A stretch of 25,271 nt of DNA, from positions 1-25,271 of the forward strand of contig CALKWZ010000014.1 in assembly GCA_938003985.1 (NCBI GenBank), read 5' to 3'. Both the position numbers and the translations under genes were made by a program. The stretch is from an uncultured Verrucomicrobiota bacterium (lineage in GTDB: Bacteria; Verrucomicrobiota; Kiritimatiellia; CAIQIC01; Lenti-01). The notes beneath the pieces are model-generated. The model was given only the letters and a program-made list of their open reading frames with translations. It did no database searches and was not told the origin of the DNA. This document shows, piece by piece, positions 734 to 25,271 of this stretch. How positions within the stretch are numbered: the first letter of the stretch is position 1; each line of letters opens with the position of its first letter.

Positions 734-1465
734 ATGGCGGAAACAACGAAAACGGCGCTGGTGATCGGGGGGAGCCGCGGCATTGGCCGGGCCATCGTGG
801 AACGCTTGGCCGCTTCGGGTTTCGACGTCTGGCTGACGTACCGGGGCAACCACGCCGCGGCGAACGAAGCGAAAGCCGTCGTGGAGGCCGCGGGCCGCAC
901 CTGCCGTCTGCTGGCGTTCGACGTGGCCGACCGCGCGGCGACGCGCGCGGCGCTGGAGCCGCTGTTGCAGGAACGCTGCCCGGACGCGCTGGTCTACAAT
1001 TCGGGCATCGCGCGCGACAACCTGCTGGCGTTCATGCAGGACGCGGAATGGGACGACGTCCTGCGCACGAACCTGGACGGGTTCTTCAACGTGTCGAAGC
1101 CCGTCGTATTCGAGATGATCCGCAACAAACGCGGGCGCATCGTGGTGATTTCGTCCATTTCGGGCCAGATGGGACAGGCCGGGCAGATGAACTACGCGGC
1201 GTCCAAGGCGGGCCTGATCGGCGCGGCGCGGTCGCTGGCGCGGGAAATCGGCCGCAAGAACGTCTTCGTGAACGTGGTCTCTCCGGGGGTCATCGAAACG
1301 GAAATGACGGCGGATCTGCCGAAGGAACACGTGCTGCCGCTGATCCCCCTGAACCGCTACGGCACGGCGGCGGAAGTCGCGGCCGTGGTGGATTTCCTCT
1401 GTTCCGAGCCGCACATGTACGTTCACGGCCAGGTCATCGGGGTGAACGGCGGCATGGCCATATGA
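734..1465 (+). CDS. fabG: SDR-family 3-oxoacyl-ACP reductase (FabG-like; ketoreductase of the cluster, ApeQ-like role)
   Basis: ATG at 734 is preceded by GGAGCGAAGG. Motifs seen: TALVIGGSRGIG (NAD(P)-binding Gly motif), NSG, SSISG, and the YAASK catalytic YxxxK. The longer 674 start adds a non-conserved leader. 243 aa. Confidence 0.85.
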   Translation: MAETTKTALVIGGSRGIGRAIVERLAASGFDVWLTYRGNHAAANEAKAVVEAAGRTCRLLAFDVADRAATRAALEPLLQERCPDALVYNSGIARDNLLAFMQDAEWDDVLRTNLDGFFNVSKPVVFEMIRNKRGRIVVISSISGQMGQAGQMNYAASKAGLIGAARSLAREIGRKNVFVNVVSPGVIETEMTADLPKEHVLPLIPLNRYGTAAEVAAVVDFLCSEPHMYVHGQVIGVNGGMAI

Positions 1466-2967
1466 GTTCTCCCCGCCGAGAGCGCTACGACGACGTCGTG
1501 GTCGGCGCCGGCACGGCGGGCTTGGCTTCCGCCTTGCTCTTGGCGCGGTTCGGCCGGTCGGTGCTGCTGCTCGACCGCGCGCCCGCGCCCGGCGGCGCCT
1601 TGCGGCGGTTCCGGCGCGGCGGGGCCGCGTTCGACACGGGCTTCCACTTCACCGGCAGCATCCAGCCGGGGGAACTGTTCGACCATTTGCTGACCGTGCT
1701 CGGCATCCGCAGCGAACTGGACCTCGTGCCGTTCGATTCGGAGGCCGGCCATCGGTTCCGGTTCGCGGAGGCGGACGTGGAAATGGAACTGCCCTTCGGC
1801 CTCGACCGCTGCCGCGACCGCTGGCAGGCGCAGTTCCCGCAGGAACGGGAGGCGCTGAACTGGTATTTCGATGCGCTGCGGTCGATCGCGCAACGCACAA
1901 TGGGCATGGAAGTCGGTCGGCCGCTGACCGCGTTCGGGATGCTCGACGAGGATTTCGTTTCCCTGCGGTCGGTGCTGGATGCGCGCTTCCGCGACCCGGT
2001 GCTGAAAGGGGCGATCGGCGCGTTCGCGATGTGCTACGGATCGCCGCCGGCCAGCGTGTCGTTCGCGGCCCACGCGCGGGTGGCGTTCGGCTTCCACCAG
2101 TCGGGCGGCACGCTCGCGGGCGGCGGGGACGCGCTGGCGGATGCGCTGGCGCGCGCGGCCGAACGGGCCGGGGTGGAAATCTGCTGTTCGTGCGGATTGG
2201 AATCCTTTGCGCCGGGCGCGGACCGGCAGGCCGGCGCCGCGACGTTGTCGAACGGCGCGGAGGTCGCCTTCGAGCGCTGCCTGCTGACCATCGATCCCTT
2301 TGCGATCCTGGATCTGCTGGAGCCGCTGGGCCTCACGCCGGCGTTCCGCGAACGGGTGCAGGCGTTCACGCCTTCGGTCGGATTTTTCGCCGCCTACGGC
2401 ATCGTGGACGGCCCGGAGCCGGCCGGATTCGGCCGCTCGGCCCACTCGGAATTCGCCGGCACGGATTTCGATGCGATGATGGATCCGGCGTATCCGGGCG
2501 ACCGGCCGCTGGTCCTGATCGAAGTGCCCGGCGATCCGGCCACGGGCACGCCGCCGTCCGTCTCGGCGCTGGAACTGTCGTTCGCGCAGGACGTGGCGGC
2601 CTGGGCGGGCACGCGCCGCGGCCGCCGGCCGCCCGAGTACCGGGCCTACAAGCAGACCCGCGCGGCGGCGATCGCGCGGCGGCTGGCCGGCCGCGCGTCC
2701 TATGCGGACCGGATCCGCTGGGTGGACACGGCCTCGATGCTGACGTTCCGGGATTATCAGCATTCCCGCAGCGGCAGCGCCTATGGCATCATGCTGAAAA
2801 CCGGCCAGTACGGCCTGTTCGGCCGCCTGCCGGTCCGGAATTGCTATGCGGCGGGCCAAAGCGCTTTGTTGCCGGGCGTGCTGGGCGCGATGATGTCCGG
2901 GCTGTTCGTGGTACGGCAGATGGTCGGCAAGGAAATCTTCGACGCAGCGACGGCAGGAGCGCGGTAG
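1462..2967 (+). CDS. NAD(P)/FAD-dependent oxidoreductase of the phytoene-desaturase (CrtI)/amine-oxidase-like type
   Basis: Start is an ATGA overlap with the fabG stop. The N-terminus DVVVGAGTAGLASALLLARFGRSVLLLDRAPAPGG has a GxGxxG dinucleotide fold followed by an acidic residue and GG. Length of about 501 aa is typical of CrtI-like enzymes. Family assigned by motif and length only. Confidence 0.7.
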   Translation: MSSPRRERYDDVVVGAGTAGLASALLLARFGRSVLLLDRAPAPGGALRRFRRGGAAFDTGFHFTGSIQPGELFDHLLTVLGIRSELDLVPFDSEAGHRFRFAEADVEMELPFGLDRCRDRWQAQFPQEREALNWYFDALRSIAQRTMGMEVGRPLTAFGMLDEDFVSLRSVLDARFRDPVLKGAIGAFAMCYGSPPASVSFAAHARVAFGFHQSGGTLAGGGDALADALARAAERAGVEICCSCGLESFAPGADRQAGAATLSNGAEVAFERCLLTIDPFAILDLLEPLGLTPAFRERVQAFTPSVGFFAAYGIVDGPEPAGFGRSAHSEFAGTDFDAMMDPAYPGDRPLVLIEVPGDPATGTPPSVSALELSFAQDVAAWAGTRRGRRPPEYRAYKQTRAAAIARRLAGRASYADRIRWVDTASMLTFRDYQHSRSGSAYGIMLKTGQYGLFGRLPVRNCYAAGQSALLPGVLGAMMSGLFVVRQMVGKEIFDAATAGAR

Positions 2968-2972
2968 GGCAC

Positions 2973-4211
2973 ATGAAACGGGTGGTCATCACGGGCATGG
3001 GGGCGGTTTCGCCGGTGGGCGGCACGGCGGCGGAACAAGCCGACGCGCTGGACGCCGGGCGGCACGGATTGCGCGCGATGCCGGAGTGGGCGGCCTACAA
3101 GGGGCTGCGCAGCTTGGTGGCGGCGCCGGCGGAGCTGAAGAACGAAAAGGCCATTCCCCGGCAAAACCGCCGCTCGATGAGCCGCATGAGCATCTTCGCC
3201 GCGCAAGCCGCCCAGGAAGCGCTGCGCGACGCCGGCTTGGCGCCCGAGGGGCTGGGCGACGGCCGTACCGGTTGCGTGGCGGGTTCGACGACGGGCAGCG
3301 CCATCGCGCTGGCCCAGGTCTACGAGACGATGTTGCCGGAAAAGGATTTCTCGATCCTGCAATCCATGCAGTTTTTCCAATGCCTGTCGCACACCGTAGC
3401 GATGAACCTCGCGCAATTTCTGGGATTGCGCGGCGTGCTGCTCGCCACGAACGCGGCCTGCGCTTCGAGCCTGCAGGCCATCGGCGCGGCGTTCGATCTG
3501 GTGCGGTCGGGCCGGCAGGACGCCGTGTTCTGCGGCGGGGCCGAAGAAGTCCATGCCACGGTCACGGGCTCGTTCGACATGCTCATGGCAGCGTCCACGC
3601 GCTACAACGACCGGCCCGAAGCGGCGTCGCGCCCCTTCGACGCCGCGCGCGACGGCCTCGTCTGCGGCGAGGGCGCCGGCATCCTCGTGGTGGAGGAACT
3701 GGAGCGGGCCTTGGCCCGCGGCGCGCGGATCCGCGCGGAAATCCTCGGATTCCACACGTGCAGCGGGGGCTCCCACATCAGCGAATCGAACCGCGACGGC
3801 ATCGCCGCCTGCATGCGCGCGGCGCTGGCGGACGCGCGGTTGGAGCCCGCCGCGATCGAATACGTCGGCGCCCACGCCACGGCAACCCTGCAGGGCGACG
3901 GCGAAGAGGCCGCCGCCATCCGCGCGACTTTCGGTGGCCAGGTGCCCGTCAGCAGCCTGAAGGGGAATCTGGGCCACACGCTGGGCGCATCCGGCGCCAT
4001 CGAACTGGCCGCGATCCTCGCCGGGCTCGAACGCGGCCACCTGTATCCCACGCGGAACCTGGAAACGGTGGCGGCCGAATGCGCCGGCATCCGCCACGTG
4101 ACGGCATTGGAGCCGACTTCCGCCCGCACGTTCCTGAAAAACAGTTTTGCGTTCGGCGGCATCCACGCGTCGCTCGTGTGCCGCCGCTGGACCGAGGGAG
4201 ACCCCGCATGA
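2973..4211 (+). CDS. Beta-ketoacyl-ACP synthase (FabF/FabB-like KS, Cys-His-His)
   Basis: MKRVVITGMGAVSPVG N-terminus. Active-site Cys in ATNAACASS, His in GAHATAT, His in GNLGHTLGASG, and C-terminal SFAFGGIHASL. 412 aa. Confidence 0.9.
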   Translation: MKRVVITGMGAVSPVGGTAAEQADALDAGRHGLRAMPEWAAYKGLRSLVAAPAELKNEKAIPRQNRRSMSRMSIFAAQAAQEALRDAGLAPEGLGDGRTGCVAGSTTGSAIALAQVYETMLPEKDFSILQSMQFFQCLSHTVAMNLAQFLGLRGVLLATNAACASSLQAIGAAFDLVRSGRQDAVFCGGAEEVHATVTGSFDMLMAASTRYNDRPEAASRPFDAARDGLVCGEGAGILVVEELERALARGARIRAEILGFHTCSGGSHISESNRDGIAACMRAALADARLEPAAIEYVGAHATATLQGDGEEAAAIRATFGGQVPVSSLKGNLGHTLGASGAIELAAILAGLERGHLYPTRNLETVAAECAGIRHVTALEPTSARTFLKNSFAFGGIHASLVCRRWTEGDPA

Positions 4212-4465
4212 CCCGAGAAGAAATCATCGCCAAAACCAACGCCGTGTTCGCCGAATCCTTCGAGATCGAGCCCGAGCGCCTGAAACCCGAAGCCAACGTC
4301 TTCCTCGATCTGGGGCTCGACAGCCTCGACACGGTGGATCTGGTGGTGGCGATCCAGAAGAAGTTCGGCGTGCAGATCCGCGACGACGAGCGCGTCCGGT
4401 CCATCCGCACGCTGGGCGACGTCTACGACTTCATCGCGACCATCCAGCAAGAAAAGCAGGGATGA
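4208..4465 (+). CDS. Acyl carrier protein (ACP-1)
   Basis: 85 aa, acidic. The LGLDSLDTVDLV motif contains the phosphopantetheine-attachment Ser. ATGA overlap with the upstream KS. Confidence 0.9.
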   Translation: MTREEIIAKTNAVFAESFEIEPERLKPEANVFLDLGLDSLDTVDLVVAIQKKFGVQIRDDERVRSIRTLGDVYDFIATIQQEKQG

Positions 4466-5211
4466 GGCGGGCTTGGGGCATCTGCTATTCGCTGGCGTTC
4501 TACCCTCTGCTGGCGGTCTACACCGTGTCGGCGGTGGCGGGGATGACGTTGTGGATGCTCCTCGGCGCGCCGTTCCATTCGCACCGGGGCAACATGCGCC
4601 GCTTTCGCCGCGCGATCATCTGGTACGGCGCAGGGGTCGTCCGGATCGTGGCGCGGCCCGTGCTGAAAACCGTCTACGAATCGCCGCCGCGGGACGTGCG
4701 GATCCCCAAGTTTTTCGTCGCCAACCACGTTTCCTCGCTGGATGCCTTCCTGCTGGCCCTGGTGCCCGAGGAGGGCGTGGAGGTCGTGAAGGCCTGGCCG
4801 TTCCGGTTGCCGATTCTCGGCGTTTTCGCGCGTCTGGCGGGTTTCTTGAACGTCGAGCGGATGGAGCCGGACGAATTCCGGGCGGCCGTGGAGGACCTGC
4901 TGGGCGAGGGCTATTCGATCGTGGTGTTTCCCGAAGGCACCCGCTCCGGCAGCCGGCAAGTGGGACCGTTCCACGGGGCGATGTTCCGCCTGGCGCTCGA
5001 GCTGCGCGTGCCCCTGGTGCCGGTGTGCATCGTCGGCAACGAGCGGACGCCGGCCAAGGGCTCCTGGATCCTGGAACCGGCGACCGTGCGGATGCGCTGC
5101 TTGCCGGAAATGGCGTGGAACGAGTTTAGCCACATGACGCCCTATCAGTTGAAAAACCACGTGCGCCGGCTGATCCAGGACGAAGTGGACCGCATGGGAG
5201 CGACCGCATGA
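4462..5211 (+). CDS. PlsC/LPLAT-family (lysophospholipid/1-acylglycerol-3-phosphate type) acyltransferase with an N-terminal membrane segment
   Basis: HX4D motif in NHVSSLD and an FPEGTRS motif. Hydrophobic N-terminus WGICYSLAFYPLLAVYTVSAVAGMTLWMLL. ATGA overlap with the ACP stop. Confidence 0.8.
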   Translation: MRRAWGICYSLAFYPLLAVYTVSAVAGMTLWMLLGAPFHSHRGNMRRFRRAIIWYGAGVVRIVARPVLKTVYESPPRDVRIPKFFVANHVSSLDAFLLALVPEEGVEVVKAWPFRLPILGVFARLAGFLNVERMEPDEFRAAVEDLLGEGYSIVVFPEGTRSGSRQVGPFHGAMFRLALELRVPLVPVCIVGNERTPAKGSWILEPATVRMRCLPEMAWNEFSHMTPYQLKNHVRRLIQDEVDRMGATA

Positions 5212-6518
5212 AGCCGTTGCCGCAAGACTTCGATCTGGCTTTCCGTTCCGCCGACGAAATCCAAGCCGTGCAGGAGCGGCGGTTGGCCGCGCATCTGCGG
5301 CAGTGCCGTCGCGCGCCGTTCTATCGAAAGACGCTGGCCGGCGTGGCAAAGCCTGCGCTGCGCCGCTTCCCGCTGGAAGCGCTGCGCGACTTGCCGCTGA
5401 CGACCAAAGCCGATCTGGAAGCGCGCAACGACGATTTCCTCGCCGTGCCGCCGGAGACGGTGCGCGACATCGTGCAGTCGTCCGGCACGACGGGCCGTCC
5501 TACGCGGGTGATGTACACGGCGCGGGATCTCGAGCGGCTGGCCTACAACGAGGCGGTCTGTTTCCGGGGCTGCGGCATGGGGCCGGGGGATCGCGTGCTG
5601 CTGACCTGCACGCTGGACCGCTGTTTCGTGGCCGGCTACGCCTACCACCTCGGCGCGCAGGCGGTCGGCGCATGCACGATCCGCAGCGGGCTCAATCTGG
5701 CGGAAGGCCACGCCGCGGTCATCGCGCTGCAAAGCCCGACGTTCGTCGTGGGCGTTCCGGGGTTCCTGCGCAAGCTCGGCAAGCACCTGCACGACCTGGG
5801 CCGGCCGCCGCAGGGCATCCGCGGACTGATCTGCATCGGCGAACCCCTGCGCGACGCGGAATTGCGTCCGACGGCGCTTTCGCAGGATCTGGAGCGCCTG
5901 TGGGGCGCACCGGCGTACTCGACCTATTCCTCGTCCGAAATCGTGACGTCGTTCTGCGAATGCGCCGCGCGGTGCGGCGGCCACGCCGCGCCCGATCTGG
6001 GCATCGTGGAAATCGTGGATGCGGACGGGAACGTCCTGCCGCCGGGGCAGGCGGGCGAGGTGGTCGTGACGCCGCTGGGCGTCGAGGGCATGCCGCTCGT
6101 CCGGTTCCGCACGGGCGACATCGGTTACTTGGCGGCCGAACCGTGCGCGTGCGGCCGGCAGACGCCGCGGCTGAGCCCGATCCTGGGCCGCCGCGCGCAG
6201 ATGCTGAAGATCCGCGGCACCACGTTCTACCCGGCCACCGCGTTCGAGGTGCTCAACGACGTGCCCGAAATCGGCGAATACTATCTCCAGGTCGAAACGA
6301 CGGGCGGGGAGGACCAGGCCAGCGTCCATCTGAGCCTCAGTCCCGACCGGCCCGAGACGCGCCGCAAGATCGAAGACCGGTTGCTGGCGCGCCTGCGCGT
6401 GCGGGTCCAGCTCTGCGTGGAGCCGGAAGACGACGTGCGCCGGCAGGTCTACGTGGCCCATTCGCGCAAACCCATCCGGTTCATCGACCGGCGCGGAACA
6501 ACGGCAGCCAAGGCTTGA
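5208..6518 (+). CDS. Adenylate-forming ligase of the phenylacetate-CoA ligase (PaaK)/coenzyme F390 synthetase-like type; probable starter- or acyl-activating enzyme
   Basis: SSGTTGRPTRV (P-loop-like AMP motif), YSSSE, and VRFRTGDIG (adenylation core motif). 436 aa. ATGA overlap with the upstream gene. Confidence 0.75.
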   Translation: MKPLPQDFDLAFRSADEIQAVQERRLAAHLRQCRRAPFYRKTLAGVAKPALRRFPLEALRDLPLTTKADLEARNDDFLAVPPETVRDIVQSSGTTGRPTRVMYTARDLERLAYNEAVCFRGCGMGPGDRVLLTCTLDRCFVAGYAYHLGAQAVGACTIRSGLNLAEGHAAVIALQSPTFVVGVPGFLRKLGKHLHDLGRPPQGIRGLICIGEPLRDAELRPTALSQDLERLWGAPAYSTYSSSEIVTSFCECAARCGGHAAPDLGIVEIVDADGNVLPPGQAGEVVVTPLGVEGMPLVRFRTGDIGYLAAEPCACGRQTPRLSPILGRRAQMLKIRGTTFYPATAFEVLNDVPEIGEYYLQVETTGGEDQASVHLSLSPDRPETRRKIEDRLLARLRVRVQLCVEPEDDVRRQVYVAHSRKPIRFIDRRGTTAAKA

Positions 6519-6520
6519 TC

Positions 6521-6877
6521 ATGGAAATCCTTGCCATCCATACCAATGAAGCCCGCGTGCGCTTTCCGGCGAACGCACCGTACTTCGCGGGGCATTTCCC
6601 CGGCCAACCCATCGTGCCGGGGGTCGTGCTGATCGACGCGGCGGTCCAGATCGCGGCGCAGGCGACCGCCCGCCCGTTGCGCCTCCTCCGGCTGGCCCAT
6701 GCCAAGTTCGTCCAGGCGGTCGGACCGGATCAGGAAGCCCTTTGGCGTTTCCAGATTGCGCCGGACCCGGACCGTTCGGAATGGCTCAAGGTTTCCGGCA
6801 AGTGGAGCCAAGGCGAGACCCGGATCGCCGAAATGCAATTCACCGCGGCAGACGAAGGAGATCGCGATGGCCCGTAG
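6521..6877 (+). CDS. FabZ/FabA-like hotdog 3-hydroxyacyl-ACP dehydratase (ApeI-like)
   Basis: 118 aa. FAGHFPGQPIVPGVVLIDA matches the HFPxxPxxPG catalytic-His motif of FabZ-type dehydratases. Confidence 0.75.
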   Translation: MEILAIHTNEARVRFPANAPYFAGHFPGQPIVPGVVLIDAAVQIAAQATARPLRLLRLAHAKFVQAVGPDQEALWRFQIAPDPDRSEWLKVSGKWSQGETRIAEMQFTAADEGDRDGP

Positions 6878-7355
6878 GCGCGAACAAGCCATGTCGTTCC
6901 CGGACGAACCGGCCTATCCGCCGATCCAGGCGGCGGTGCAGCACCGGGTCGGGTTTTCGGAAGTCGATCCGATGCGGATCGTCTGGTTCGGACGCTACGC
7001 GACGTTTTTCGAGCAGGCCTCGGCGGCGCTGCGCGACCGGTGCGGACTGTCGCACGAAGATTTCTTCCGCGCGGGCATCCAGCCGCCCATCGTGCGCTAC
7101 GAGGTCGAATATCTGCGGCCGTCGCGCCTGGACGAGCAGTTGAAGATCGTGGCGCGCCTGCACGGGACCGAAGCGGCGCGGCTGAACACCAGCTATCAGG
7201 TCTTCGGTCCGGACGGGGCGCTGCGCGTGGCGGCGCGCACGGTGCAGGTGTTCACGGAAATCCACACGGGCATCGTCTGTTTCGTGCCGCCGAAAATCTG
7301 GCTCGATTGCCTGGAGCGCTGGCGGAAAGGGGAATTCGCGTGCCTGCAGGCGTAG
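6867..7355 (+). CDS. 4HBT/YbgC-like hotdog acyl-CoA/acyl-ACP thioesterase (ApeK-like)
   Basis: GAAGGAG RBS at 6854-6860. VGFSEVDPMRIVWFGRY matches the YbgC-type catalytic Asp region. About 162 aa. Overlaps the dehydratase gene by 11 nt. An alternative ATG lies at 6891. Confidence 0.7.
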   Translation: MARRREQAMSFPDEPAYPPIQAAVQHRVGFSEVDPMRIVWFGRYATFFEQASAALRDRCGLSHEDFFRAGIQPPIVRYEVEYLRPSRLDEQLKIVARLHGTEAARLNTSYQVFGPDGALRVAARTVQVFTEIHTGIVCFVPPKIWLDCLERWRKGEFACLQA

Positions 7356-12583: not shown

Positions 12584-12599
12584 GCCCGGAAACGAGGCT

Positions 12600-12627
12600 T
12601 TGCGCCTTCGGGCAATTGGAGTATAAG
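12600..12627 (+). promoter_or_regulatory. Putative internal sigma70-like promoter in the only sizeable intergenic gap of the first half of the cluster
   Basis: TTGCGC (12600-12605), a 16 nt spacer, then TATAAG (12622-12627), within the 71 nt gap 12584-12654. An AAGGAG RBS lies at 12644-12649 ahead of ATG 12655. Confidence 0.3.
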
Positions 12628-12654
12628 GACCGAAAATCGGATCAAGGAGCGACT

Positions 12655-12933: not shown

Positions 12934-12936
12934 CGC

Positions 12937-18630: not shown

Positions 18631-20115
18631 ATGAGTTGCGCATCACTATTGTTCGGCCAGGAATTCTCCCCGGAGGAGATCGCCCAAACCAAGGCCGCCC
18701 ATGGCCTCCTGACCATGGAAGTCGAAGTCGGGACGGCCTGCAATTTCCGCTGCAAGTACTGCTACGTCGGCGACGGGAATTCCGTCGGCAACGGCAAATG
18801 CGCGGAATTGTCGCTGGACGAAATCCGCGACGTGATCGGGCAGGCCCAGGCGCTGGGGGCGCGCAAAATCATCCTGCTGGGCGGCGAACCCATGATCTAC
18901 GGTTTCACGCCGGAACTGTGCGAATGGATCCGCGGACGCGGCCTGGGCGTCGAGCTGTTCACCAACGGCACGAACATGACCGCCGAGATGGCCGCGCGGC
19001 TGTTCAAGCTGGGCGTGCACGTGGTCCTGAAATGGCATACCTCCGACCACCAGATCCAGGATTGGCTGGCGGGAGTGCCGGGCGCGGCCGCCATCATGTC
19101 CGACGCTTATCGCCATTTGCGCGCCGCCGGCTATCCCTCGACGGAGGCGAAGATGGCCTTGAGCACGGTGATCTGCCGCCAGAACGTCGCGGAACTGCCC
19201 AGCCTCTGGAAATGGATGCGCACCGAGGGCATCGAGCCGTATTTCGAGATGATCACCCCGCAAGGCCGCGCGCGGAACAGCGCCCACGACCTGTCGCCTT
19301 CGGTCGAAGAAGTCCGGCAGTTGTTCGAGACGATCCGCACGATCGATCGCGACCAATTCGGGCGGACTTGGGAAGCGCAGCCGCCGTTGGTCGGCAATGC
19401 CTGCCTGCGGCACTCGTTTTCCTGCTTGGTGGCGGCCTCGGGCGACGTCATGCCGTGCGTCGGGGTGTCGCTGCCGGTAGGCAACGTCCGCGAGCGGCCG
19501 CTGGCCGACATTTTGGCCGACAGCGAAGTCATCGCCGACCTGCGCGACCACGAAAACACCATCCAGGGCGCCTGCGGCGCCTGCGACAAGGCGGCGACCT
19601 GCTACGGTTGCCGCGGCGCGGCCTTCCAGTTGACCGGCAACTATCTGGGTTCGGATCCGCTTTGCTGGCGCAACCAGGCGGAAACCGTCGATTGCGGCCA
19701 GTTGCCGATCGATGCCGCGCGGCTGGTGCCGCATCAGGCGCCCGCCCGGATGGTCGCGGCGCTGGAGGCGGTGGGCGAACGGACCGCCACGGTTTCGGCC
19801 GTCATCGCGGACGACAATCCCCATTGCCGCGCGGGCCGGCTGGCGGAAGCGGCGCACGTCGAGTTGATGGCCCAGGCGGCGGCCGCCCTGCACGGGTATC
19901 GCTCCGCGACGCGGCCGGAGGCCGCTCCGCAGCGCGGGATGCTGGTCGGCGCCCGCAACCTGGAAATCCATGCGGACGTCCGCGTGGGCGATCGGCTGAC
20001 CGTGCGCCTGCACAAACAGGCCCGGCTCGGCACGTTCGGCGTGATCGACGCGGAAGTGCGCCGCGGCGAAACCGTGGTTTCGAAAGCGGAGCTGAAAACA
20101 TGGCACGCAGGATGA
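18631..20115 (+). CDS. Radical SAM enzyme with a SPASM-type auxiliary Fe-S domain, fused to a C-terminal hotdog (ApeP/FabZ-like dehydratase) domain
   Basis: CX3CX2C in GTACNFRCKYC, with Cys codons at 18739, 18751 and 18760. SPASM-like Cys pattern: CLRHSFSCLVAASGDVMPC (CX12GX4C), then CGACDKAATCYGC, then DPLCW. The C-terminal ~135 aa from about 19700 (LVPHQAPARMV...MLVGARNLEIHADVRVGDRLTV...GETVVSKAELK) looks like a hotdog dehydratase. Start ATG 18631 was chosen over in-frame TTG 18583. Confidence 0.75.
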   Translation: MSCASLLFGQEFSPEEIAQTKAAHGLLTMEVEVGTACNFRCKYCYVGDGNSVGNGKCAELSLDEIRDVIGQAQALGARKIILLGGEPMIYGFTPELCEWIRGRGLGVELFTNGTNMTAEMAARLFKLGVHVVLKWHTSDHQIQDWLAGVPGAAAIMSDAYRHLRAAGYPSTEAKMALSTVICRQNVAELPSLWKWMRTEGIEPYFEMITPQGRARNSAHDLSPSVEEVRQLFETIRTIDRDQFGRTWEAQPPLVGNACLRHSFSCLVAASGDVMPCVGVSLPVGNVRERPLADILADSEVIADLRDHENTIQGACGACDKAATCYGCRGAAFQLTGNYLGSDPLCWRNQAETVDCGQLPIDAARLVPHQAPARMVAALEAVGERTATVSAVIADDNPHCRAGRLAEAAHVELMAQAAAALHGYRSATRPEAAPQRGMLVGARNLEIHADVRVGDRLTVRLHKQARLGTFGVIDAEVRRGETVVSKAELKTWHAG

Positions 20116-20744
20116 GCCGTCGGCCACGTCGGATGGCGGGACTGATCTGCGGCCTGCTCGCCGTTCAGGTCTCCCTCGCCGCGGAACCCGCAACCGACGT
20201 CTTGGGTCAGATGGAACAGGCCATGGCGGACGTCAAAACCGTCAAAACCCGTTTCGTGCAGGAAAAGAAGATGGCCCTGTTCAACCATCCGCTGGTCACG
20301 CGCGGCAGCATCTGGGTCGAACCGCCGGAGCACTTGCTCTGGCGGGTGGAAAGCCCGATGCAGTACGCCCTGGCGCTCGACGGCTCCCGCGTCCGGCAAT
20401 GGGACGGCGAGACCGGCAAAACGACCAGCCTGTCCATGGACGGCAATCCCGTCTTCGCCGCCGTCACCGAGCAGCTCAATGCCTGGTTCGGCGGGCGCTA
20501 TGGCCTGCTGGCCCAGGATTACGACGTCGAGCAGCAGGTCGCCGCGCCCGCCACGTTCGTCTTCGTTCCCAAGCCGACCGCGCCGTCCGCGAAAATGCTG
20601 AAATCGGTGACGGTCGTTTTCCGCGCGGACGCGCGCTACATCGCGTCCATCCGGATCGACGACCGCAGCGGCGACGTCACCACGCTGACGTTCACCGAGA
20701 CCGAGATCAACGTCCCCTTGGATCCGAAAGCCTGGGAGCTGTAG
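20100..20744 (+). CDS. LolA-like outer-membrane lipoprotein-carrier family protein (ApeL-like), secreted
   Basis: Signal peptide RRMAGLICGLLAVQVSLAAEP. VKTVKTRFVQEKKMALF and a length of about 214 aa are typical of LolA-fold proteins. GGAG lies 8 nt upstream of ATG 20100. The alternative ATG 20112 forms an ATGA overlap with the upstream stop. Confidence 0.7.
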   Translation: MARRMSRRPRRMAGLICGLLAVQVSLAAEPATDVLGQMEQAMADVKTVKTRFVQEKKMALFNHPLVTRGSIWVEPPEHLLWRVESPMQYALALDGSRVRQWDGETGKTTSLSMDGNPVFAAVTEQLNAWFGGRYGLLAQDYDVEQQVAAPATFVFVPKPTAPSAKMLKSVTVVFRADARYIASIRIDDRSGDVTTLTFTETEINVPLDPKAWEL

Positions 20745-23161
20745 TGGCCGGGCCGTTTCGGGACAAGCTGCGGGCGGGTCTGCGGCGGCGGTCGGCCGTC
20801 TTGGGCTTGGTCGCGCTGGTCTTGCTGCTGTCCGCTGCCGCGTTGCCGTTCAGGAGCTTCAACGGGCGCATCGACGTCATGCTGCCGGACCGTTCCGAAC
20901 TGCGGGACGTTTTCGGTTTTCTGCGCGACATCCACGTCGCCGACAAAGTGCTGGTGACGCTTTCCATGCGCGCCGGGACGGTCGATCCCGACGCGTTGGC
21001 CGCGGCGGCCGATGCCTACGTCGCCGGTCTCGATCCGGCCTGGGCCGCGCCTCTGGCGGCGGGGAGCCCGGTTGCCGACGTGGCGGGGGACTTCGACCGC
21101 TTGGCGCGGCGGTTGCCGGACTATCTCGCCGCGGAAGATCTGGCCCGATTGCGCGACGGCGCGGCGTCGGCCGCCGGCATCCGGGCCTCGCTGCAGGCCC
21201 TGAAAAGCCGCCTGCAACGCCCGGAAGGGATGTGGTCCGCCGTTGCCCCCGGAGCCGATCCGCTGGACTGGAACGGCCGGCTGGCGGCGGGCATCCTCCA
21301 TGCGGTGTCCTCCTTCGGCTACCGCGCGGTGCCGGTGGGCAACCATCTGATGGACCCGGAGCGGCGCCATCTGCTGCTGGTGCTGCAAACACCCGTCCTG
21401 ATGACGGATACGGCCCGGGGCCGCGGCCTGCTGGAGCATCTCGCCGCGCGCGCCGCGGAACTGCCGCCGACGGTCGAAGCGCGGCTCGTGTGCGGGCATC
21501 TGCATACCGCCGGCAACGAAACCCTCATCCGGTGGGACGTCCAACGCACCGCGCTGGCGATTTCCGCCGTTTTCCTGGCGCTCTTTTGGGGCGTTTACCG
21601 CGATCCGCGCGCGCTGGCGATCATGCTGATCCCGATGCTGGCCTGCGTGCCCGCGCTGGCGTTGGCGGCGGCGTTTTTCGAGAGTTTTTCCTTCATCGTG
21701 CTCGGGTTCGGTTCGGTGATCGCGGGTATTGCCGTGGATTACGGCATCCATAGCTACGTCGCGGCGCGCAGCGCGCAGCCCGACCGCAATCTGGCGGCCA
21801 TTCGCCGCCCGGTTGCGCTGAGCGCGCTGACCACGCTCTGCGTGTTCATCGCGTTCTGTTTTTCCAGCATTCCGGCCTATCGGCAACTCGGGGCGTTCGC
21901 TTCGTTCGCCATCGTGATTTCGCTGGTGTACGCCTTCTGGGCCTTGCCCCCGTTCGTGCGTCGGCGCGCAACTGCGGTGCCGGAGCCGGTGCCGGCGGCG
22001 AGGGGCAACGGCTCGCGAACGCAGGCCGCCTGGATCGCGCTGGTCGCGGCGGCGGCGTTGGCGGCGGGGATTGGCTTGCTGGCCCGGCTGTCGCTGGATC
22101 CGGACGTTTCCAAACTGGACGGCACGCCGCAAGCGGTTCTCGACGAGGAGGCCCGGGCCATGGCGATCTGGGGCGGGGGGCAATCCATGGCCGCCATCCT
22201 CGTCGTGGAGGCTCCGGACGAGCAGGAAGCCCTACATCTGAACGACCGGCTGTACGAGGATTTGCAGGCCGCCGGGTTGCCGGCTTCCGAAATGTCCAGT
22301 CTGGCACCGCTGTGGCCCTCCGCCGCGACCCGCCAGGCGCGCCGCGCGGCTTGGAACGAAGCGTGGACGGACGAACGCATCGCCGAATTGCGCCGGACGC
22401 TGGCGACGGAAGCCGCCGCGCTCGATTTCTCGGAAGCCGCCTTCGCCGCCTTCTGGGAGCGGTTCGCGGAGTGGCGGGACCTGGCCGCCGAACAGGAGTC
22501 CGTCGGTTTCCTGGAGCCGCTGCGCCGGCAATTCATCCACGCGCAGGACGGCAAGGTGCGCGTGACGACGTTCGTCCCCGACGAGCCGCGCTGGATCGCG
22601 GCGGCCCAGGAGTTGCAACAAGAGCTGGCGGCGCTGCGCGTGATTTCCAGACGGGCGTTTTCGGCGGACTTGTCCGCGGCGGTGCTCGGCGAAATGCTGC
22701 GGACGACGATCTGGGCGGGAACGTTCATCCTGCTTGCGACGGGGCTGGTGCTGCGGCGCGCCGGCATGCTGGCGCTGGCCATCCTCCCGGCCGTGGCCGG
22801 CATGGTCTGGGGCGGGGCGGGCATGGCGTTGTGGGGACTGTCGCTGAACGTGTCCAATCTGGTCGCGGGCATCCTGGTCTTCGGTTTGTGCATCGACTAC
22901 GGCATCTGCATGGCCTATGCCCAGCGGCGCGGGATGCGGCGCGACATGTCCCGCGCGGTGACGCTGTCGGCGCTGACGACGGCGCTGGGCGCGGCGGTGC
23001 TGTTGATCGCCGACCATCCGGCCTTCCTGGCGATCGGCATCACGCTGGTGTTCGGCGTGAGCGCGGGTTACGTCTACGCCCGGTGGGTGTTGCCGGCGCT
23101 GCAAATCCTGTTCCCGCGCCTCAATCCGCCCGATGAATGCGCGGCGGAGGAGGGCGCATGA
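20744..23161 (+). CDS. MMPL/RND-superfamily membrane transporter (ApeM-like exporter)
   Basis: GTG start at 20744 overlaps the TAG stop, with GGGAG 6 nt upstream. 805 aa with two homologous multi-TM blocks, each preceded by a soluble loop and each containing a G[IL]xxDYGI motif (IAGIAVDYGIHSY and VFGLCIDYGICMAY). Confidence 0.8.
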   Translation: MAGPFRDKLRAGLRRRSAVLGLVALVLLLSAAALPFRSFNGRIDVMLPDRSELRDVFGFLRDIHVADKVLVTLSMRAGTVDPDALAAAADAYVAGLDPAWAAPLAAGSPVADVAGDFDRLARRLPDYLAAEDLARLRDGAASAAGIRASLQALKSRLQRPEGMWSAVAPGADPLDWNGRLAAGILHAVSSFGYRAVPVGNHLMDPERRHLLLVLQTPVLMTDTARGRGLLEHLAARAAELPPTVEARLVCGHLHTAGNETLIRWDVQRTALAISAVFLALFWGVYRDPRALAIMLIPMLACVPALALAAAFFESFSFIVLGFGSVIAGIAVDYGIHSYVAARSAQPDRNLAAIRRPVALSALTTLCVFIAFCFSSIPAYRQLGAFASFAIVISLVYAFWALPPFVRRRATAVPEPVPAARGNGSRTQAAWIALVAAAALAAGIGLLARLSLDPDVSKLDGTPQAVLDEEARAMAIWGGGQSMAAILVVEAPDEQEALHLNDRLYEDLQAAGLPASEMSSLAPLWPSAATRQARRAAWNEAWTDERIAELRRTLATEAAALDFSEAAFAAFWERFAEWRDLAAEQESVGFLEPLRRQFIHAQDGKVRVTTFVPDEPRWIAAAQELQQELAALRVISRRAFSADLSAAVLGEMLRTTIWAGTFILLATGLVLRRAGMLALAILPAVAGMVWGGAGMALWGLSLNVSNLVAGILVFGLCIDYGICMAYAQRRGMRRDMSRAVTLSALTTALGAAVLLIADHPAFLAIGITLVFGVSAGYVYARWVLPALQILFPRLNPPDECAAEEGA

Positions 23162-23835
23162 AACGGTTGCGGACCGGAGTCATGGTTATGGCCGGGCTGT
23201 GGCTGACGGGGTGCGCGACGGCGCCGTTCCAGCGGCCGGAACCGTTTGCGGCGACCGGACTCGCGCCGGAACGGGTTCCGGCGGCTTTCGCGGAACGCTT
23301 GGCGCCGCGCTACGAACAAGCGCAAGCTCTCGTGTTTCGCTTCTATCTGCGCGAAATCGCCGCGCTGGGCTATCTCTCCGTGGACGTGCCCGCCCGCTCG
23401 TTCGCGATGGCCTGCCTGAATCCGGTCGGCATCAAGTTGTTCGAGCTGGTCGGAACGAACGGCGAAGTCGAGGCCCGGTTCGTCGCGCCGGAAATCGAAA
23501 AGCACGGCGGCGAACTGGCGCAAGCGGCGGGGGCGGACTTGGCGCGGGCCTACTTCGATTGGCTGCCGCCGGCCGGCGCGACGTGCCGCCGCGCTAAAAA
23601 CCGGCTGATTTTCACCGCCGCGGATGCCGCGGGGCGCACGGAATACCGCTATGCCGGCCGCGACGGGTTTTTGGCCGAAAAAATCCGCATCGAAGCCGGC
23701 CGCGTTCGCTGGAAGGTGGACTATCGCGATTATCGCCGCGGCGCGGAGGGCTGGATCCCGACCGGACTGGTGATCCACAACCGGCGTTATGGCTATCGCC
23801 TGGTCGCCATCGCGAAAGAGTCGGAGGCTCCATGA
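23158..23835 (+). CDS. Lipoprotein of unknown function (position and size match the DUF3261-type lipoprotein that follows the MMPL gene in APE clusters)
   Basis: MKRLRTGVMVMAGLWLTGC contains a lipobox (LTGC). GGAGGAGGG RBS. ATGA overlap with the MMPL stop. The family call rests on synteny recall only. Confidence 0.7.
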   Translation: MKRLRTGVMVMAGLWLTGCATAPFQRPEPFAATGLAPERVPAAFAERLAPRYEQAQALVFRFYLREIAALGYLSVDVPARSFAMACLNPVGIKLFELVGTNGEVEARFVAPEIEKHGGELAQAAGADLARAYFDWLPPAGATCRRAKNRLIFTAADAAGRTEYRYAGRDGFLAEKIRIEAGRVRWKVDYRDYRRGAEGWIPTGLVIHNRRYGYRLVAIAKESEAP

Positions 23836-25271
23836 AAGTCCTGTTGGTGCGCCCCCATCTGATCCTGGCGCTGTCGCGCCGCTTCAATGCTTTCCTGCAT
23901 CTGGAGCCGTTGGATTTGGAGATCGTCGCCGGCGGCGTGGAAGCGCCGCACGAGGTGGAAATCCTGGACCTGTCGCACGGCCGGCGGCCGTTCGCCGCGC
24001 TGCGGCGGAAACTGCGCGACATGCGGCCGGATCTGGTGGGCTTCGGCTGCTACTCGAACCAAGCGGCGGCGGTGCGCGAGCTGGCTGGCCTCGTCCGGCA
24101 AGTCCTGCCGACCGCGAAGATCGCGGTGGGCGGGGTCCACGCCAGCATCGCGCCGCAGGACCTGAACCGGCCCGAATTGTACGATTTCGTGGTGCGCGGG
24201 GAGGGCTCCGTGGCCATCCGCCGCCTGCTGGCGGCGCTGGAGCGGGGCGCGGCCATCGCCGACGAAGGCGTGCTGCCCGTCGGCGCGCCCGAATTCGCCG
24301 CCTTGGCGGAAGGACCGCCGCCGGCCCATCCCGACTACCGCGAAGTGGCCAAGCCCCGCCGGGACTTGGTCGATCGCTCGAAGTATTTCTGCATCTGGTC
24401 CGGCAAGCCGGATGAAAGCCTGGCCACGCTCTATCCGCGCACGGCGTCCATGCGCACCAGCGTGGGCTGTCCGCGGCGGTGCAGCTTCTGCGTCGTGCAT
24501 TTCCTGGCCCATGGGCGCTATATCCAGCGGGATCCCGCCGACGTCGTGGACGAAATCGCGTCGATCCCGGAGGATTACGTCTATTTCGTGGACGACGAAA
24601 TGTTCATCAATCCCGTGCGCGCCGAAGCGATCGCGCGCCTGCTGCTCGAACGGGGCGTGCGCAAGCAGTACGTCAGCTGGGCGCGCAGCGACACCATCTG
24701 CGCGCATCCGGAGCTGTTCAAGCTGTGGCAGCGGGCCGGCCTGCAAGTCGTCTACGTCGGGTTGGAATCGATGGAAGCGGATGCCCTGAAAAACTTCAAC
24801 AAGGGCGTCGATCCGGACACCAACCGCCGGGCCGTGGCGATCCTGCGCGAGGCCGGCATCGTGCTGCATTCGGCGCTGATCGTGAATCCCGATTTCACCC
24901 AAGCGGATTTCCAGCGGCTGCACCGGACGGTCGCGGCCATCGCGCCGGCGGAAATGTCCTTCACGGTGCTGGCGCCGTCGCCGGGCACGGACTTCTGGCG
25001 GGAAACCCGCGCGCGGTTCATCGCGCCCGATCCGTACGCCTTCTACGACTGCATGCACACGCTGTTGCCGACGCGCCTGCCCATGCGCACGTTCTACCGC
25101 TATTTTTCGCTGCTGTACCTGCGCGGATTCCAGCACAATCCCTGGCGCGCGCACCGCGTGAAGGTGCCGTTCCGGGATCTGCTGCGGCTGATGTGGAGCG
25201 GAGCGCGCACCGGCTGGACCCTGCACGGGCTCCACCGCGATTATCCGCCCGAAGCCCGCGCGGCGTGCGGG
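23832..25271 (+). CDS. B12-binding-domain (class B) radical SAM enzyme, 3'-truncated by the window end
   Basis: GGAGG RBS and an ATGA overlap with the upstream stop. MKVLLVRPH...LVGFGCYSNQAAAVRELAGLVRQVLPTAKIAVGGVH forms the B12-binding-like N-terminus. CX3CX2C in SVGCPRRCSFC, with Cys codons at 24468, 24480 and 24489. The frame is open for 480 codons to 25271. It is absent from the ORF track only because it has no stop. Confidence 0.8.
   Translation, partial: MKVLLVRPHLILALSRRFNAFLHLEPLDLEIVAGGVEAPHEVEILDLSHGRRPFAALRRKLRDMRPDLVGFGCYSNQAAAVRELAGLVRQVLPTAKIAVGGVHASIAPQDLNRPELYDFVVRGEGSVAIRRLLAALERGAAIADEGVLPVGAPEFAALAEGPPPAHPDYREVAKPRRDLVDRSKYFCIWSGKPDESLATLYPRTASMRTSVGCPRRCSFCVVHFLAHGRYIQRDPADVVDEIASIPEDYVYFVDDEMFINPVRAEAIARLLLERGVRKQYVSWARSDTICAHPELFKLWQRAGLQVVYVGLESMEADALKNFNKGVDPDTNRRAVAILREAGIVLHSALIVNPDFTQADFQRLHRTVAAIAPAEMSFTVLAPSPGTDFWRETRARFIAPDPYAFYDCMHTLLPTRLPMRTFYRYFSLLYLRGFQHNPWRAHRVKVPFRDLLRLMWSGARTGWTLHGLHRDYPPEARAACG

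Follow-up and report, generated by a model that had tools for sequence, protein, structure and literature searches.

An aryl-polyene-like, probable lipid gene cluster with built-in radical SAM enzymes and flavoproteins in an uncultured Verrucomicrobiota bacterium

Gene content of the cluster

The window, i.e., the whole stretch of 25,271 nucleotides that was analysed, holds 24 genes (g01 to g24), all on the plus strand and running from position 734 to the window end, as judged from third-codon-position GC and reading-frame analysis. The coordinates give 4-nt overlaps of the ATGA/GTGA type at 13 or 14 of the 23 gene junctions, in agreement with the co-directional, overlapping arrangement described in the first-pass annotation. 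The lengths of g14 to g24 match the precomputed gene calls of the source contig; in these, g24 has a full length of 484 amino acids, so that just four of its codons lie outside the window. The gene of a second, FadD-like ligase is located just beyond the window. The window probably comprises almost the whole of a single operon-like biosynthetic gene cluster, a member of a conserved family with about 25 genes. Domains were assigned by Pfam and NCBIfam profile searches of the predicted proteins, and every domain named in the first-pass annotation was found.

The chain-building core contains three ketosynthases (KSs) with Cys, His and His in place: the ApeR-like g03 (2973–4211), the ApeO-like g14 (12937–14121) and the N-terminal part of g09 (7340–9028). 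The C-terminal 180 or so residues of g09 are KS-like and chain-length-factor-like without the active-site Cys (Pfam ketoacyl-synt, 28.7 bits) and occur as a separate protein of 234–250 amino acids in two related loci (L084 and L090). In g15 (14118–15143), a chain-length-factor-like KS homologue matching only the N-terminal domain PF00109, together with PF13723, the active-site Cys is replaced; E. coli ApeC also lacks this residue. The three acyl carrier proteins (ACPs), g04 (4208–4465), g13 (12655–12933) and g16 (15145–15399), match PF00550 and each carry a DSL/DSM serine motif. The active-site motifs thus uphold the predicted set of three intact KSs, two Cys-less KS-like domains and three ACPs. 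Profile matches do the same for the FabG-type, ApeQ-like 3-oxoacyl-ACP reductase g01 (734–1465; NF004200, 283.5 bits, cutoff 273), for the ApeK-like 4HBT thioesterase g08 (6867–7355; PF13279/PF03061) and for two hotdog domains of the dehydratase type, namely the FabA/ApeI-like subunit g07 (6515–6877; PF07977, PF22818) and the ApeP-like C-terminus of g20. Enoyl reductases had been reported absent, and indeed none of the cluster proteins matched the FabI, FabK, FabV or MDR-type families in Pfam or NCBIfam.

The expected ligase, acyltransferases and export trio are also present. The adenylating ligase g06 (5208–6518) is of the PaaK/FlxY type; its nearest model is that of the flexirubin ligase FlxY (NF053551; 385 bits, cutoff 520), and it scores 152 bits with the PaaK model. 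The acyltransferases are the PlsC/LPLAT-type, ApeD-like g05 (4462–5211; PF01553) and the LpxL-family g12 (11648–12583; PF03279), which resembles the C-terminal half of ApeJ. The trio consists of the LolA-like, ApeL-like periplasmic carrier g21 (20112–20744, with an alternative start possibly at 20100; PF03548), the RND/MMPL-type, ApeM-like transporter g22 (20744–23161; TIGR03480 HpnN, 2e-22) and the lipoprotein g23 (23158–23835), which has the lipobox LTGC and is weakly DUF3261/ApeN-like (PF11659, 18.6 bits, under the cutoff).

All four radical SAM proteins contain the CxxxCxxC motif. The B12-domain enzyme g10 (9025–10296; DUF4070, weak Pfam scores) shows the highest conservation of all cluster proteins: 177 of its 423 positions are at least 95 % identical among 63 orthologues, C173, C177 and C180 are invariant and the median identity in distant lineages is 65 %. 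From this conservation, g10 is judged to be under strong purifying selection. The B12-binding g11 (10293–11651) scores 577.8 bits (cutoff 360) with TIGR04072, a model named 'rSAM_ladder_B12' and described as 'lipid biosynthesis B12-binding/radical SAM protein'. Its nearest solved structure is TsrM (6wte, 8e-33) and it scores 189 bits with the BzaD model; BzaD and TsrM, the characterised enzymes nearest to it, methylate aromatic carbon and are known for sp2-carbon chemistry. In g20 (18631–20115), a radical SAM/SPASM protein (PF04055 and PF13186) with invariant cysteines in both domains is fused to the ApeP-like hotdog domain (PF22817; PDB 6qsr_B matches residues 358–491). The fourth protein, g24 (23832–25271, cut by the window end), is a B12-binding, HpnR/BchE-like enzyme (TIGR04367, 234 bits, cutoff 650), a relative of which follows g18 in many distant loci.

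Two flavoproteins accompany these enzymes: g02 (1462–2967; PF01593, 2e-14), an amine-oxidase protein of the CrtI/CrtD family that scores far under the cutoffs of TIGR02733/02734, and the FAD-dependent oxidoreductase g18 (16745–17914; PF12831, 2e-52). The standalone protein g17 (15396–16748) matches no Pfam or NCBIfam model and was recognised as an acyltransferase-like protein of the condensation (HxxxD) fold by its invariant D144-H145-x-L147-x-D149 (DHxLxD) motif and by its AlphaFold2 model (pLDDT 90.4), for which Foldseek returned AzeD (8s6l, 7e-20), NRPS C domains, PapA5 and Tri3. Its homologues form 385 representative clusters at E ≤ 1e-30. The tailoring set announced in the first-pass annotation, i.e., three B12-radical SAM enzymes, the radical SAM-SPASM-hotdog fusion, both flavoenzymes and the HxxxD protein, was therefore recovered in full from profiles, fold and motif. 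Lastly, the secreted protein g19 (17952–18494) is lineage-specific: it gave no match in Pfam or NCBIfam and, apart from a small number of other loci, occurs only in PVC relatives.

Relation to aryl-polyene clusters and conservation across phyla

The proteins were compared gene by gene with the annotated ape cluster of E. coli CFT073 using tblastn and hhalign; experimentally supported roles of the Ape proteins are described in PMC8253772. At least 11 cluster proteins have Ape homologues, which substantiates the proposed Ape-like core: two KSs, a chain-length factor, the ketoreductase (KR), the ApeI/ApeP dehydratases, the thioesterase, ACPs, two acyltransferases and the export trio. Identities are 43 % for g01 with ApeQ, 41 % for g03 with ApeR, 34 % for g14 with ApeO, 27 % for g08 with ApeK, and 39 and 41 % for g04 and g13 with the CFT073 ACPs. 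The hhalign probabilities are 97 % (g05 with ApeD), 98 % (g07 with ApeI), 96 % (g21 with ApeL), 99.5 % (g22 with ApeM) and 99 % (g12 with residues 257–553, the acyltransferase half, of ApeJ). The C-terminus of g20 corresponds to ApeP, the match of g23 to ApeN is weak (39 %) and g06 shows only weak similarity to ApeH. For g02, g10, g17, g18 and g19, neither method found a match in the CFT073 cluster, which, as stated for canonical ape clusters in the first-pass annotation, contains no radical SAM gene and also lacks flavoprotein and C-domain genes, whereas the cluster described here has all three kinds and is without an ApeB-type methyltransferase.

The gene order g01–g18 plus g20–g24 is syntenic in Verrucomicrobiota/Kiritimatiellia/Lentisphaerae, Nitrospirota, Omnitrophota, Desulfobacterota, Hydrogenedentota, Acidobacteriota and Brocadiia. 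Relatives of g11 are encoded in at least 566 species genomes, and at least 465 metagenome relatives of g20 were found. Each of g10, g11 and g12 is present in 34 of 34 full loci, g17 in 28 and g18 in 24 of them; g20–g23 occur in 12 of 12 loci and g01–g05 in 9 of 12. Co-conservation extends to g02 (median identity 39 %) and to the FadD-like ligase gene, which again follows g18/g24 in 12 distant loci. Near the cluster, DUF4410 and a gene of an outer-membrane MipA-like protein were also seen repeatedly. Conservation stops at g01, upstream of which the genes vary. In at least seven phyla, the genes of the radical SAM enzymes and flavoenzymes are thus conserved together with the KS/ACP core, contrary to the chance juxtaposition by which, according to the first-pass annotation, its reading would have been refuted.

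Alternative readings of the product

An ordinary aryl-polyene pigment cluster, in which radical SAM enzymes replace the SAM-dependent methyltransferase ApeB and yield a methylated aryl polyene lipid, would account for the Ape homologues, for the missing methyltransferase, for the aromatic-carbon methylases among the relatives of g11 and for the proximity of g06 to FlxY. It is nevertheless unlikely, as a single methylation does not call for the nine other conserved genes that have no equivalent among the Ape genes (g02, the extra KS/CLF of g09, g10, g16, g17, g18, the radical SAM half of g20, g24 and the second ligase). Moreover, no gene for an aromatic starter, such as that of TAL or chorismate lyase, is present in the window, g06 is only weakly similar to ApeH and none of the cluster proteins reaches the NCBIfam equivalog cutoffs of FlxB, FlxY or LolA2.

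A second alternative is an anaerobic route to polyunsaturated fatty acids or hydrocarbons, put forward as a hypothesis by Rattray in 2009 (PMC2649909), in which double bonds would be introduced into ordinary acyl chains by radical SAM enzymes and the CrtI-like flavoprotein and would not stem from omitted enoyl reduction. The co-conservation of g02, g18 and the FadD-like fatty-acid ligase fits this route, as does the presence of polyunsaturated hydrocarbons in Desulfotalea psychrophila, which has a syntenic cluster (PMC2649909). It appears improbable because a complete Ape-type KS/CLF-KR-dehydratase set without enoyl reductase already provides unsaturation, so that desaturases are not needed. 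In addition, a cluster with its own thioesterase, acyltransferases and outer-membrane export trio is more in keeping with a specialised envelope lipid than with bulk fatty acids. The Kuenenia proteins kuste3336 and kuste3607 also did not display CrtI activity. Polyunsaturated hydrocarbons are usually made by Pfa/Ole pathways.

Clusters of this type have been observed before: the family was noted by Rattray in 2009 (PMC2649909), has been known since then as 'ladderane-like' and in non-anammox phyla receives the antiSMASH label 'ladderane' (PMC9902471). Its culturable carriers named in PMC2649909 include Geobacter, Pelobacter carbinolicus and D. psychrophila. Synthesis of ladderanes, the concatenated cyclobutane lipids of anammox bacteria, is, however, very unlikely. 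In its favour are the TIGR04072 score of g11 (578 bits), the same cluster in a Brocadiia-class MAG and Kuenenia candidate genes homologous to g11, g20, g10 and g02. Compared with the Kuenenia proteins of Javidpour 2016 (S6 and S2 Tables), g11 is 34 % identical to kuste3342, g20 41 % to kuste3343 (a protein without the hotdog domain), g10 27–30 % to kuste3608 and kuste2803, g02 23 % to kuste3607 over 390 amino acids, g06 35 % to the N-terminal 128 residues of kuste3344 and g13 43 % to kuste3340. The resemblance noted in the first-pass annotation is thus real but distant: orthologues in unrelated phyla are closer (61–82 % for g10 and about 48 % for g11, against 27–41 %), and the Kuenenia proteins look like diverged relatives or paralogues. 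To our knowledge, ladderanes occur in anammox bacteria only, yet the family is found in at least seven other phyla. D. psychrophila, with its syntenic cluster, has no ladderanes (PMC2649909). Ladderane synthesis is now ascribed preferentially to the anammox-specific Cluster I (amxACP, amxFabZ, FabF2/FabFmut), compared here through two of its six genes, kuste3607 and kuste3608, both of which are distant (23–30 %).

Chance juxtaposition of unrelated radical SAM and flavoenzyme genes with an Ape-like operon, favoured by nothing beyond their absence from canonical ape clusters, is refuted by the synteny analysis and has a negligible probability, given the identical gene order in distant phyla, the single strand with its 4-nt overlaps, the covalent fusion in g20 and the variable genes upstream of a conserved cluster.

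Proposed pathway

There is good reason to regard the family as an Ape-type lipid pathway of the type II PKS/FAS kind that incorporates a constant complement of radical SAM and flavin enzymes. The route proposed here builds on Ape homology, intact active-site motifs and cross-phylum co-conservation of the gene set, from which we infer its mechanism; the literature yielded no assigned product for the family, as had been supposed for the non-anammox relatives, and no intermediate or enzyme activity for any member, and attempts to express the Kuenenia relatives in a foreign host were without result (PMC4790861). The ligase g06 would load an acid starter onto an ACP, after which the KS/CLF pairs g14/g15 and fused g09, plus the third KS g03, would extend the chain with malonyl units. 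The β-keto groups would be reduced by g01 and dehydrated by an ApeI/ApeP-type heteromeric dehydratase of g07 and the g20 hotdog domain; lacking an enoyl reductase, the chain would stay unsaturated and polyene-type.

Because the radical SAM/SPASM domain of g20 is fused to a dehydratase subunit, it probably acts on the nascent ACP-bound hydroxyacyl or enoyl intermediate, for which there is a precedent in Jaw5, a radical SAM enzyme whose substrate is an enoyl intermediate formed by an iterative PKS (review PMC13459092). The B12-radical SAM enzymes, with g11 closest to TsrM and BzaD and g24 HpnR-like, may modify the chain or head group, with C-methylation as the most probable reaction and C–C bond formation as an alternative. 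Methylation is only the prior, since enzymes of this class, such as BchE, AprD4 and OxsB, also carry out other reactions. The flavoproteins g02 and g18 may adjust the saturation state; CrtI-family/PF12831 proteins could also work as reductases, and then no polyene chain would result. The condensation-fold protein g17, encoded directly after the ACP g16, may couple an acyl chain carried on an ACP with another moiety. Release and attachment to a lipid anchor would involve g08, g05 and g12, and transport to the outer membrane g21, g22 and g23. A GT2-DUF2062 gene that lies between g11 and g12 in most relatives is absent in this lineage, so the head group may differ here from that of the rest of the family.

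In conclusion, the gene content suggests that the likely product is a radical-tailored, polyene-type lipid of the outer membrane and not a ladderane.

Gene content and limits of the cluster

The G+C content of the window varies between 63 and 73%. By third-position GC and frame analysis, 24 genes were found, all on the forward strand and running from position 734 to the end of the window, as the first-pass annotation had described; 13 to 14 of the 23 gene junctions are 4-nt overlaps. The lengths of g14 to g24 agree with the precomputed gene calls on L085, the 41-kb metagenome contig from which the window comes. On this contig g24 is 484 aa long, and therefore just four codons of it are cut off by the window. 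Genes for tRNA-Ala(CGC) (155-230, + strand) and tRNA-Tyr(GTA) (257-341, + strand) are located some 400 bp upstream of g01. These were the sole matches in an Rfam scan, in which no cobalamin or SAM riboswitch was detected; there is therefore no RNA-level link to B12. A scan of positions 1-1000, including the stretch from the tRNA genes to g01, for promoter and terminator consensus sequences gave no match. The genes upstream of g01 are conserved solely among close relatives, which places the 5' boundary of the cluster at g01.

Pfam and NCBIfam searches, combined with an alignment of the ketosynthase (KS) active sites, recovered every item of the gene list drawn up in the first-pass annotation. 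The first part of the cluster encodes a FabG-type ketoreductase above its NCBIfam cutoff (g01), a CrtI/CrtD-family flavoprotein (g02), a KS (g03), an ACP (g04), a PlsC-type acyltransferase (g05), a PaaK/FlxY-type ligase (g06), a FabA/ApeI-like hotdog dehydratase (g07), a 4HBT thioesterase (g08) and a KS with a C-terminal KS-like domain (g09). It is followed by a B12-domain radical SAM enzyme with DUF4070 (g10, 9025-10296), a second B12-radical SAM enzyme (g11), an LpxL-type acyltransferase (g12), an ACP (g13), a KS (g14), a KS-like protein with the N-terminal domain only (g15), a third ACP (g16), a protein without a family (g17) and a PF12831 FAD oxidoreductase (g18). The remaining genes specify a 180-aa secreted protein with a signal peptide and without a family (g19, 17952-18494), a radical SAM/SPASM protein with an ApeP-like hotdog domain (g20; PF22817, PDB 6qsr_B), LolA (g21), an RND/HpnN-like transporter (g22), a lipoprotein (g23, which scores below the DUF3261 cutoff) and an HpnR/BchE-like B12-radical SAM enzyme (g24). 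Alignment with the E. coli aryl polyene proteins ApeR, ApeO and ApeC revealed that the Cys, His and His residues are kept in g03, g14 and the N-terminal part of g09, and that the catalytic Cys is absent from g15 and from the C-terminal part of g09. No enoyl reductase family was matched by any protein of the window in Pfam or NCBIfam, in line with the earlier observation. PDB sequence searches with g02 and g18 returned the dinucleotide-binding motif as the sole match, which is uninformative.

The g17 protein had no match in Pfam, NCBIfam or PDB by sequence and was identified by its predicted fold alone. Its AlphaFold2 model (pLDDT 90.4, pTM 0.92) resembles AzeD, the condensation/cyclisation domains of NRPSs, PapA5 and Tri3, and a D-H-x-L-x-D motif is invariant in an alignment of 30 homologues. 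A profile search with g17 yielded 385 representative clusters at E ≤ 1e-30. By its predicted fold, g17 is thus a standalone condensation-fold enzyme, and the earlier guess, made from an HxxxD motif, has held.

Correspondence with aryl polyene clusters

The window was compared gene by gene with the annotated ape cluster of E. coli CFT073 by tblastn (identities) and by profile-sequence hhalign (probabilities). Most proteins of the Ape core have a counterpart, which bears out the Ape-like character proposed before. Identities were 43% for g01 and ApeQ, 41% for g03 and ApeR, 34% for g14 and ApeO, 39-41% for g04 and g13 and the Ape ACPs, 27% for g08 and ApeK, and 24% for the C-terminus of g20 and ApeP. 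Using hhalign, g05 was matched to ApeD (97%), g07 to ApeI (98%), g12 to the C-terminal half of ApeJ (residues 257-553; 99%), g21 to ApeL (96%) and g22 to ApeM (99.5%). The matches of g23 to ApeN (39%) and of g06 to ApeH (27%, and none in tblastn) are weak. For g02, g10, g17, g18 and g19 no counterpart was found in the CFT073 cluster with either method.

In the Ape pathway, ApeH loads the starter, ApeR initiates, ApeO/ApeC elongate and ApeI/P dehydrate; ApeD/J serve lipid attachment and ApeL/M/N export (PMC8253772). The KS/chain-length factor (CLF) pair ApeO/ApeC and the second KS, ApeR, correspond to g14, g15 (Cys-less like ApeC) and g03. A ketoreductase, the ApeI and ApeP dehydratase pair (ApeP solely as a fusion), an ApeK thioesterase, two ACPs, the ApeD acyltransferase, the acyltransferase half of ApeJ and the LolA/RND/lipoprotein export set of g21, g22 and, weakly, g23 are shared with the clusters of CFT073 and Xenorhabdus doucetiae, as are the co-directional, overlapping operon and the missing enoyl reduction.

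Unlike Ape clusters, the window cluster lacks ApeA, ApeG and the SAM-dependent head-group methyltransferase ApeB; no SAM-dependent methyltransferase at all was detected in the window by Pfam and NCBIfam. The ligase g06 is PaaK/FlxY-type and not clearly of the ApeH type, which loads an aromatic starter (4-HBA), and the GT2 half of ApeJ is missing from this lineage. Beyond the Ape set, the cluster contains three B12-radical SAM enzymes, a radical SAM/SPASM domain fused to ApeP, two flavoproteins, the predicted condensation-fold protein, a second KS/CLF (fused), a third ACP and a second ligase. The CFT073 cluster is devoid of any radical SAM or flavoenzyme gene, and the statement that canonical Ape clusters have no radical SAM genes is thus true of it. 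The Cys-less KS-like part of g09 (8480-9028) occurs elsewhere as a separate protein of 234-250 aa, for instance in L084 (8044-8748) and L090 (16756-17508), two related loci, where it matches E. coli ApeC in size. This gives the cluster two KS/CLF pairs, one of which is fused here.

Conservation of the gene set across phyla

One genome per species was scanned with an alignment of g11 relatives, and at least 566 genomes were found to encode one. The best 80 of these at least 566 loci belong to Verrucomicrobiota, Kiritimatiellia, Lentisphaerae, Nitrospirota, Omnitrophota, Desulfobacterota, Hydrogenedentota, Acidobacteriota and Planctomycetota; the closest genomes among the matches listed are MAGs labelled Spartobacteria, Verrucomicrobia UBA2281 and Kiritimatiellia, with identities of 92-97%, from which the window can be assigned to an uncultured PVC lineage. 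In all those loci, tblastn with the 24 proteins gave a single order, g07-g08-g09-g10-g11-(GT2)-g12-g13-g14-g15-g16-g17-g18(-g24). A second scan, of metagenomes and centred on g20, yielded at least 465 relatives and, in distant lineages, the order g01-g06, g20-g23, g07-g11 and onwards. Taken together, the orders from both scans mean that the whole set of g01-g18 plus g20-g24 is conserved. The alternative that the radical SAM and flavoenzyme genes lie beside the KS/ACP core by chance is excluded, as they are co-conserved with it in the same order across phyla. Among loci with full flanks, g10, g11 and g12 were present in 34 of 34, g09 in 33, g17 in 28 and g18 in 24 of them; g20-g23 were found in all of 12 such loci and g01-g05 in nine of the 12. 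By far the most conserved protein is g10, with a median identity of 65% in distant lineages and 61-87% across phyla. In 63 orthologues, 177 of its 423 positions are at least 95% identical and the CxxxCxxC motif is invariant. Despite this strong conservation, g10 scores only 22 bits, below the cutoff, with the Pfam Radical_SAM model.

Relative to distant lineages, the export block alone has changed place in the lineage of the window: g20-g21-g22-g23 (18631-23835) follow g18/g19 here, but separate g06 from g07 in loci of Nitrospirota, Omnitrophota and Desulfobacterota (L113, L130 and others). In one locus (L091) the cluster is seemingly split; g13-g24 adjoin unrelated genes and g01-g12 are not nearby. 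The g19 gene is flanked by gaps of 37 and 136 bp, and no other gap between genes downstream of g13 is as wide. Apart from a few other loci, g19 is confined to relatives in the PVC group; it lies on the opposite strand in L062, L067 and L139.

A GT2-DUF2062 glycosyltransferase is encoded between g11 and g12 in most relatives (e.g. L020, 11223-12560). It is wholly absent from the lineage of the window and its closest relatives (L004, L006 and L007), and g11 and g12 are joined in the window by a 4-nt overlap (11648-11651). This absence suggests a sugar-free anchor. E. coli ApeJ is itself a GT2::acyltransferase fusion, and kuste3335 of Kuenenia stuttgartiensis is 31% identical to the GT2 of the sister lineages. 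In L042, L067 and L081 a MipA gene is found between g11 and g12.

Past g24, at a distance of about 240 bp, L085 carries a gene for a 473-aa FadD-like AMP-binding ligase on the minus strand (12368-13789), converging on the cluster. As it recurs after g18/g24 in 12 distant loci with 43-54% identity, it probably counts as a 25th gene of the cluster, outside the window. DUF4410 and MipA-like outer-membrane genes lie next to it in L085 and recur near other loci.

Relatives of the cluster and a proposed mode of action

Membership of the flexirubin clusters was rejected: FlxY, FlxB and LolA2_flexi are the best or near-best NCBIfam matches of g06, g01 and g21, but the scores of 385, 273 and 78 bits all fall short of the equivalog thresholds (520, 340 and 125), and the window lacks the dialkylresorcinol genes DarA/DarB and the TAL gene. 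Flexirubin clusters are not known to contain radical SAM genes. In flexirubin a polyene acid is esterified to a second polyketide moiety, and a two-part lipid of this sort might serve as an analogy for the role of g17.

The resemblance to candidate ladderane clusters, noted in the first-pass annotation, was confirmed but is remote. Rattray et al. described Kuenenia clusters in which radical SAM enzymes and a phenylacetyl-CoA ligase occur together with FabF paralogues and phytoene-desaturase-like genes. They reported that these clusters are syntenic with loci of Desulfotalea, Geobacter and Pelobacter, and found no ladderanes in Desulfotalea (PMC2649909). With 577.8 bits against a cutoff of 360, g11 belongs to TIGR04072 ('rSAM_ladder_B12 / lipid biosynthesis B12-binding/radical SAM protein') and is flanked by KS g09 and ACP g13. 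A second radical SAM enzyme (g20), the phytoene-desaturase-like g02, the PaaK-like g06 and multiple FabF paralogues complete the ladderane type; the FabF paralogues, which in that type include a non-canonical one, are represented by three KSs and two Cys-less KS-like domains. KS paralogues, ACPs, FabG, the PaaK-like ligase, a B12-radical SAM and a radical SAM/SPASM enzyme, the phytoene-desaturase-like flavoprotein and, in sister lineages, GT2 are shared with the extended FASII clusters kuste3335-3352 of Kuenenia and DP1853-1860 of Desulfotalea psychrophila.

The comparison with Kuenenia covered a subset of its proteins, those whose sequences are given in the supplementary tables of Javidpour et al. 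The matches were kuste3342 to g11 (34%, E 2e-82), kuste3343 to the radical SAM/SPASM part of g20 (41%, E 2e-101), kuste3340 to g13 (43%), kuste3341 to g01 (28%), the first 128 aa of kuste3344 to g06 (35%), kuste3608 and kuste2803 to g10 (30 and 27%) and kuste3607 to g02 (23%). The N-terminal 128-aa fragments of kuste3337, 3339, 3345 and 3346 had no significant match in the window; with fragments this short, homology is still possible. No close g10 orthologue was present among the Kuenenia sequences compared. The anammox-specific Cluster I (amxACP, amxFabZ, amxFabF2/FabFmut, PDH and a B12-radical SAM enzyme; kuste3603-3608) was compared through kuste3608 and kuste3607, whose similarity to g10 and g02 is distant. 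The Kuenenia proteins are just 23-43% identical to those of the window, their genes are arranged in another order, kuste3343 has no hotdog domain like that fused to g20, and the Kuenenia cluster has two extra SAM methylases. Since proteins from unrelated phyla are more similar to those of the window than this, the Kuenenia genes look like diverged relatives.

The host belongs to a non-anammox PVC lineage. A typical member of the family is carried by a Brocadiia-class MAG (L084); it was rejected as an anammox example because its NCBI classification goes no further than unclassified Brocadiia bacterium, and there are other orders in that class. In a 2023 survey, antiSMASH 'ladderane' clusters that are expressed and have no assigned function were reported from Verrucomicrobiota, Omnitrophota, Desulfobacterota and others (PMC9902471). 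Heterologous expression of Kuenenia genes gave no product (PMC4790861). A review and a preprint, both from 2026, state that the ladderane pathway has yet to be worked out and that direct evidence is lacking for every enzyme. Literature searches revealed neither an assigned product for the family, including its non-anammox members, nor literature on TIGR04072, in agreement with the earlier statement. The cluster belongs, with small variations, to a family that is known but has yet to be characterised; it is not a new kind of system, and its interpretation in the first-pass annotation is supported.

From the homologies, motifs and co-conservation observed, we infer the following course. An Ape-type assembly line without enoyl reduction would build one or more unsaturated chains on ACPs of its own; that there are two KS/CLF pairs and three ACPs suggests either two chains or a synthesis in two stages. 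The fusion of the radical SAM/SPASM domain of g20 to an ApeP-like dehydratase subunit speaks for a radical reaction on the intermediate while it is tethered. This may be comparable to the logic of Jaw5, a radical SAM enzyme of jawsamycin proposed to act on an α,β-unsaturated acyl intermediate during chain growth (PMC13459092). Jaw5 and g20 have no sequence relationship and the partner of Jaw5 is a type I iterative PKS, so that the likeness, hinted at by the fusion, would lie in the working principle alone. The nearest characterised relatives of g11, BzaD and TsrM, methylate an aromatic carbon; this kinship and the HpnR-likeness of g24 make C-methylation the default expectation. The gene for g17 comes immediately after that for ACP g16, and the protein probably forms an ester or an amide from an acyl-ACP. 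Release and anchoring of the product would then be brought about by g08, g05 and g12, and its export by g21-g23.

A bolder reading, which as a whole we consider unlikely, is that this family of some 25 genes is the anaerobe's counterpart of the aryl polyene system and makes an undescribed class of lipids. The dehydratase-docked radical SAM/SPASM domain and the highly conserved g10 would form C-C bonds on the growing ACP-bound polyene, perhaps giving rings or cross-links and not methyl groups alone; the product would go to the outer membrane, and anammox bacteria would have derived their ladderane machinery from this family as a specialised branch. If this were true, culturable non-anammox carriers would offer a tractable route into ladderane-type chemistry.

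The question of ladderane biosynthesis remains important, and the family provides a comparative handle on the anammox genes. The window itself adds a member from a PVC lineage and some variant features; it makes the question no more tractable than do the cultured carriers, known since 2009, which are the practical route. Clusters of this kind, widespread and tightly conserved and with four radical SAM enzymes on an Ape-type polyene pathway, probably hold new lipid chemistry of anaerobes.
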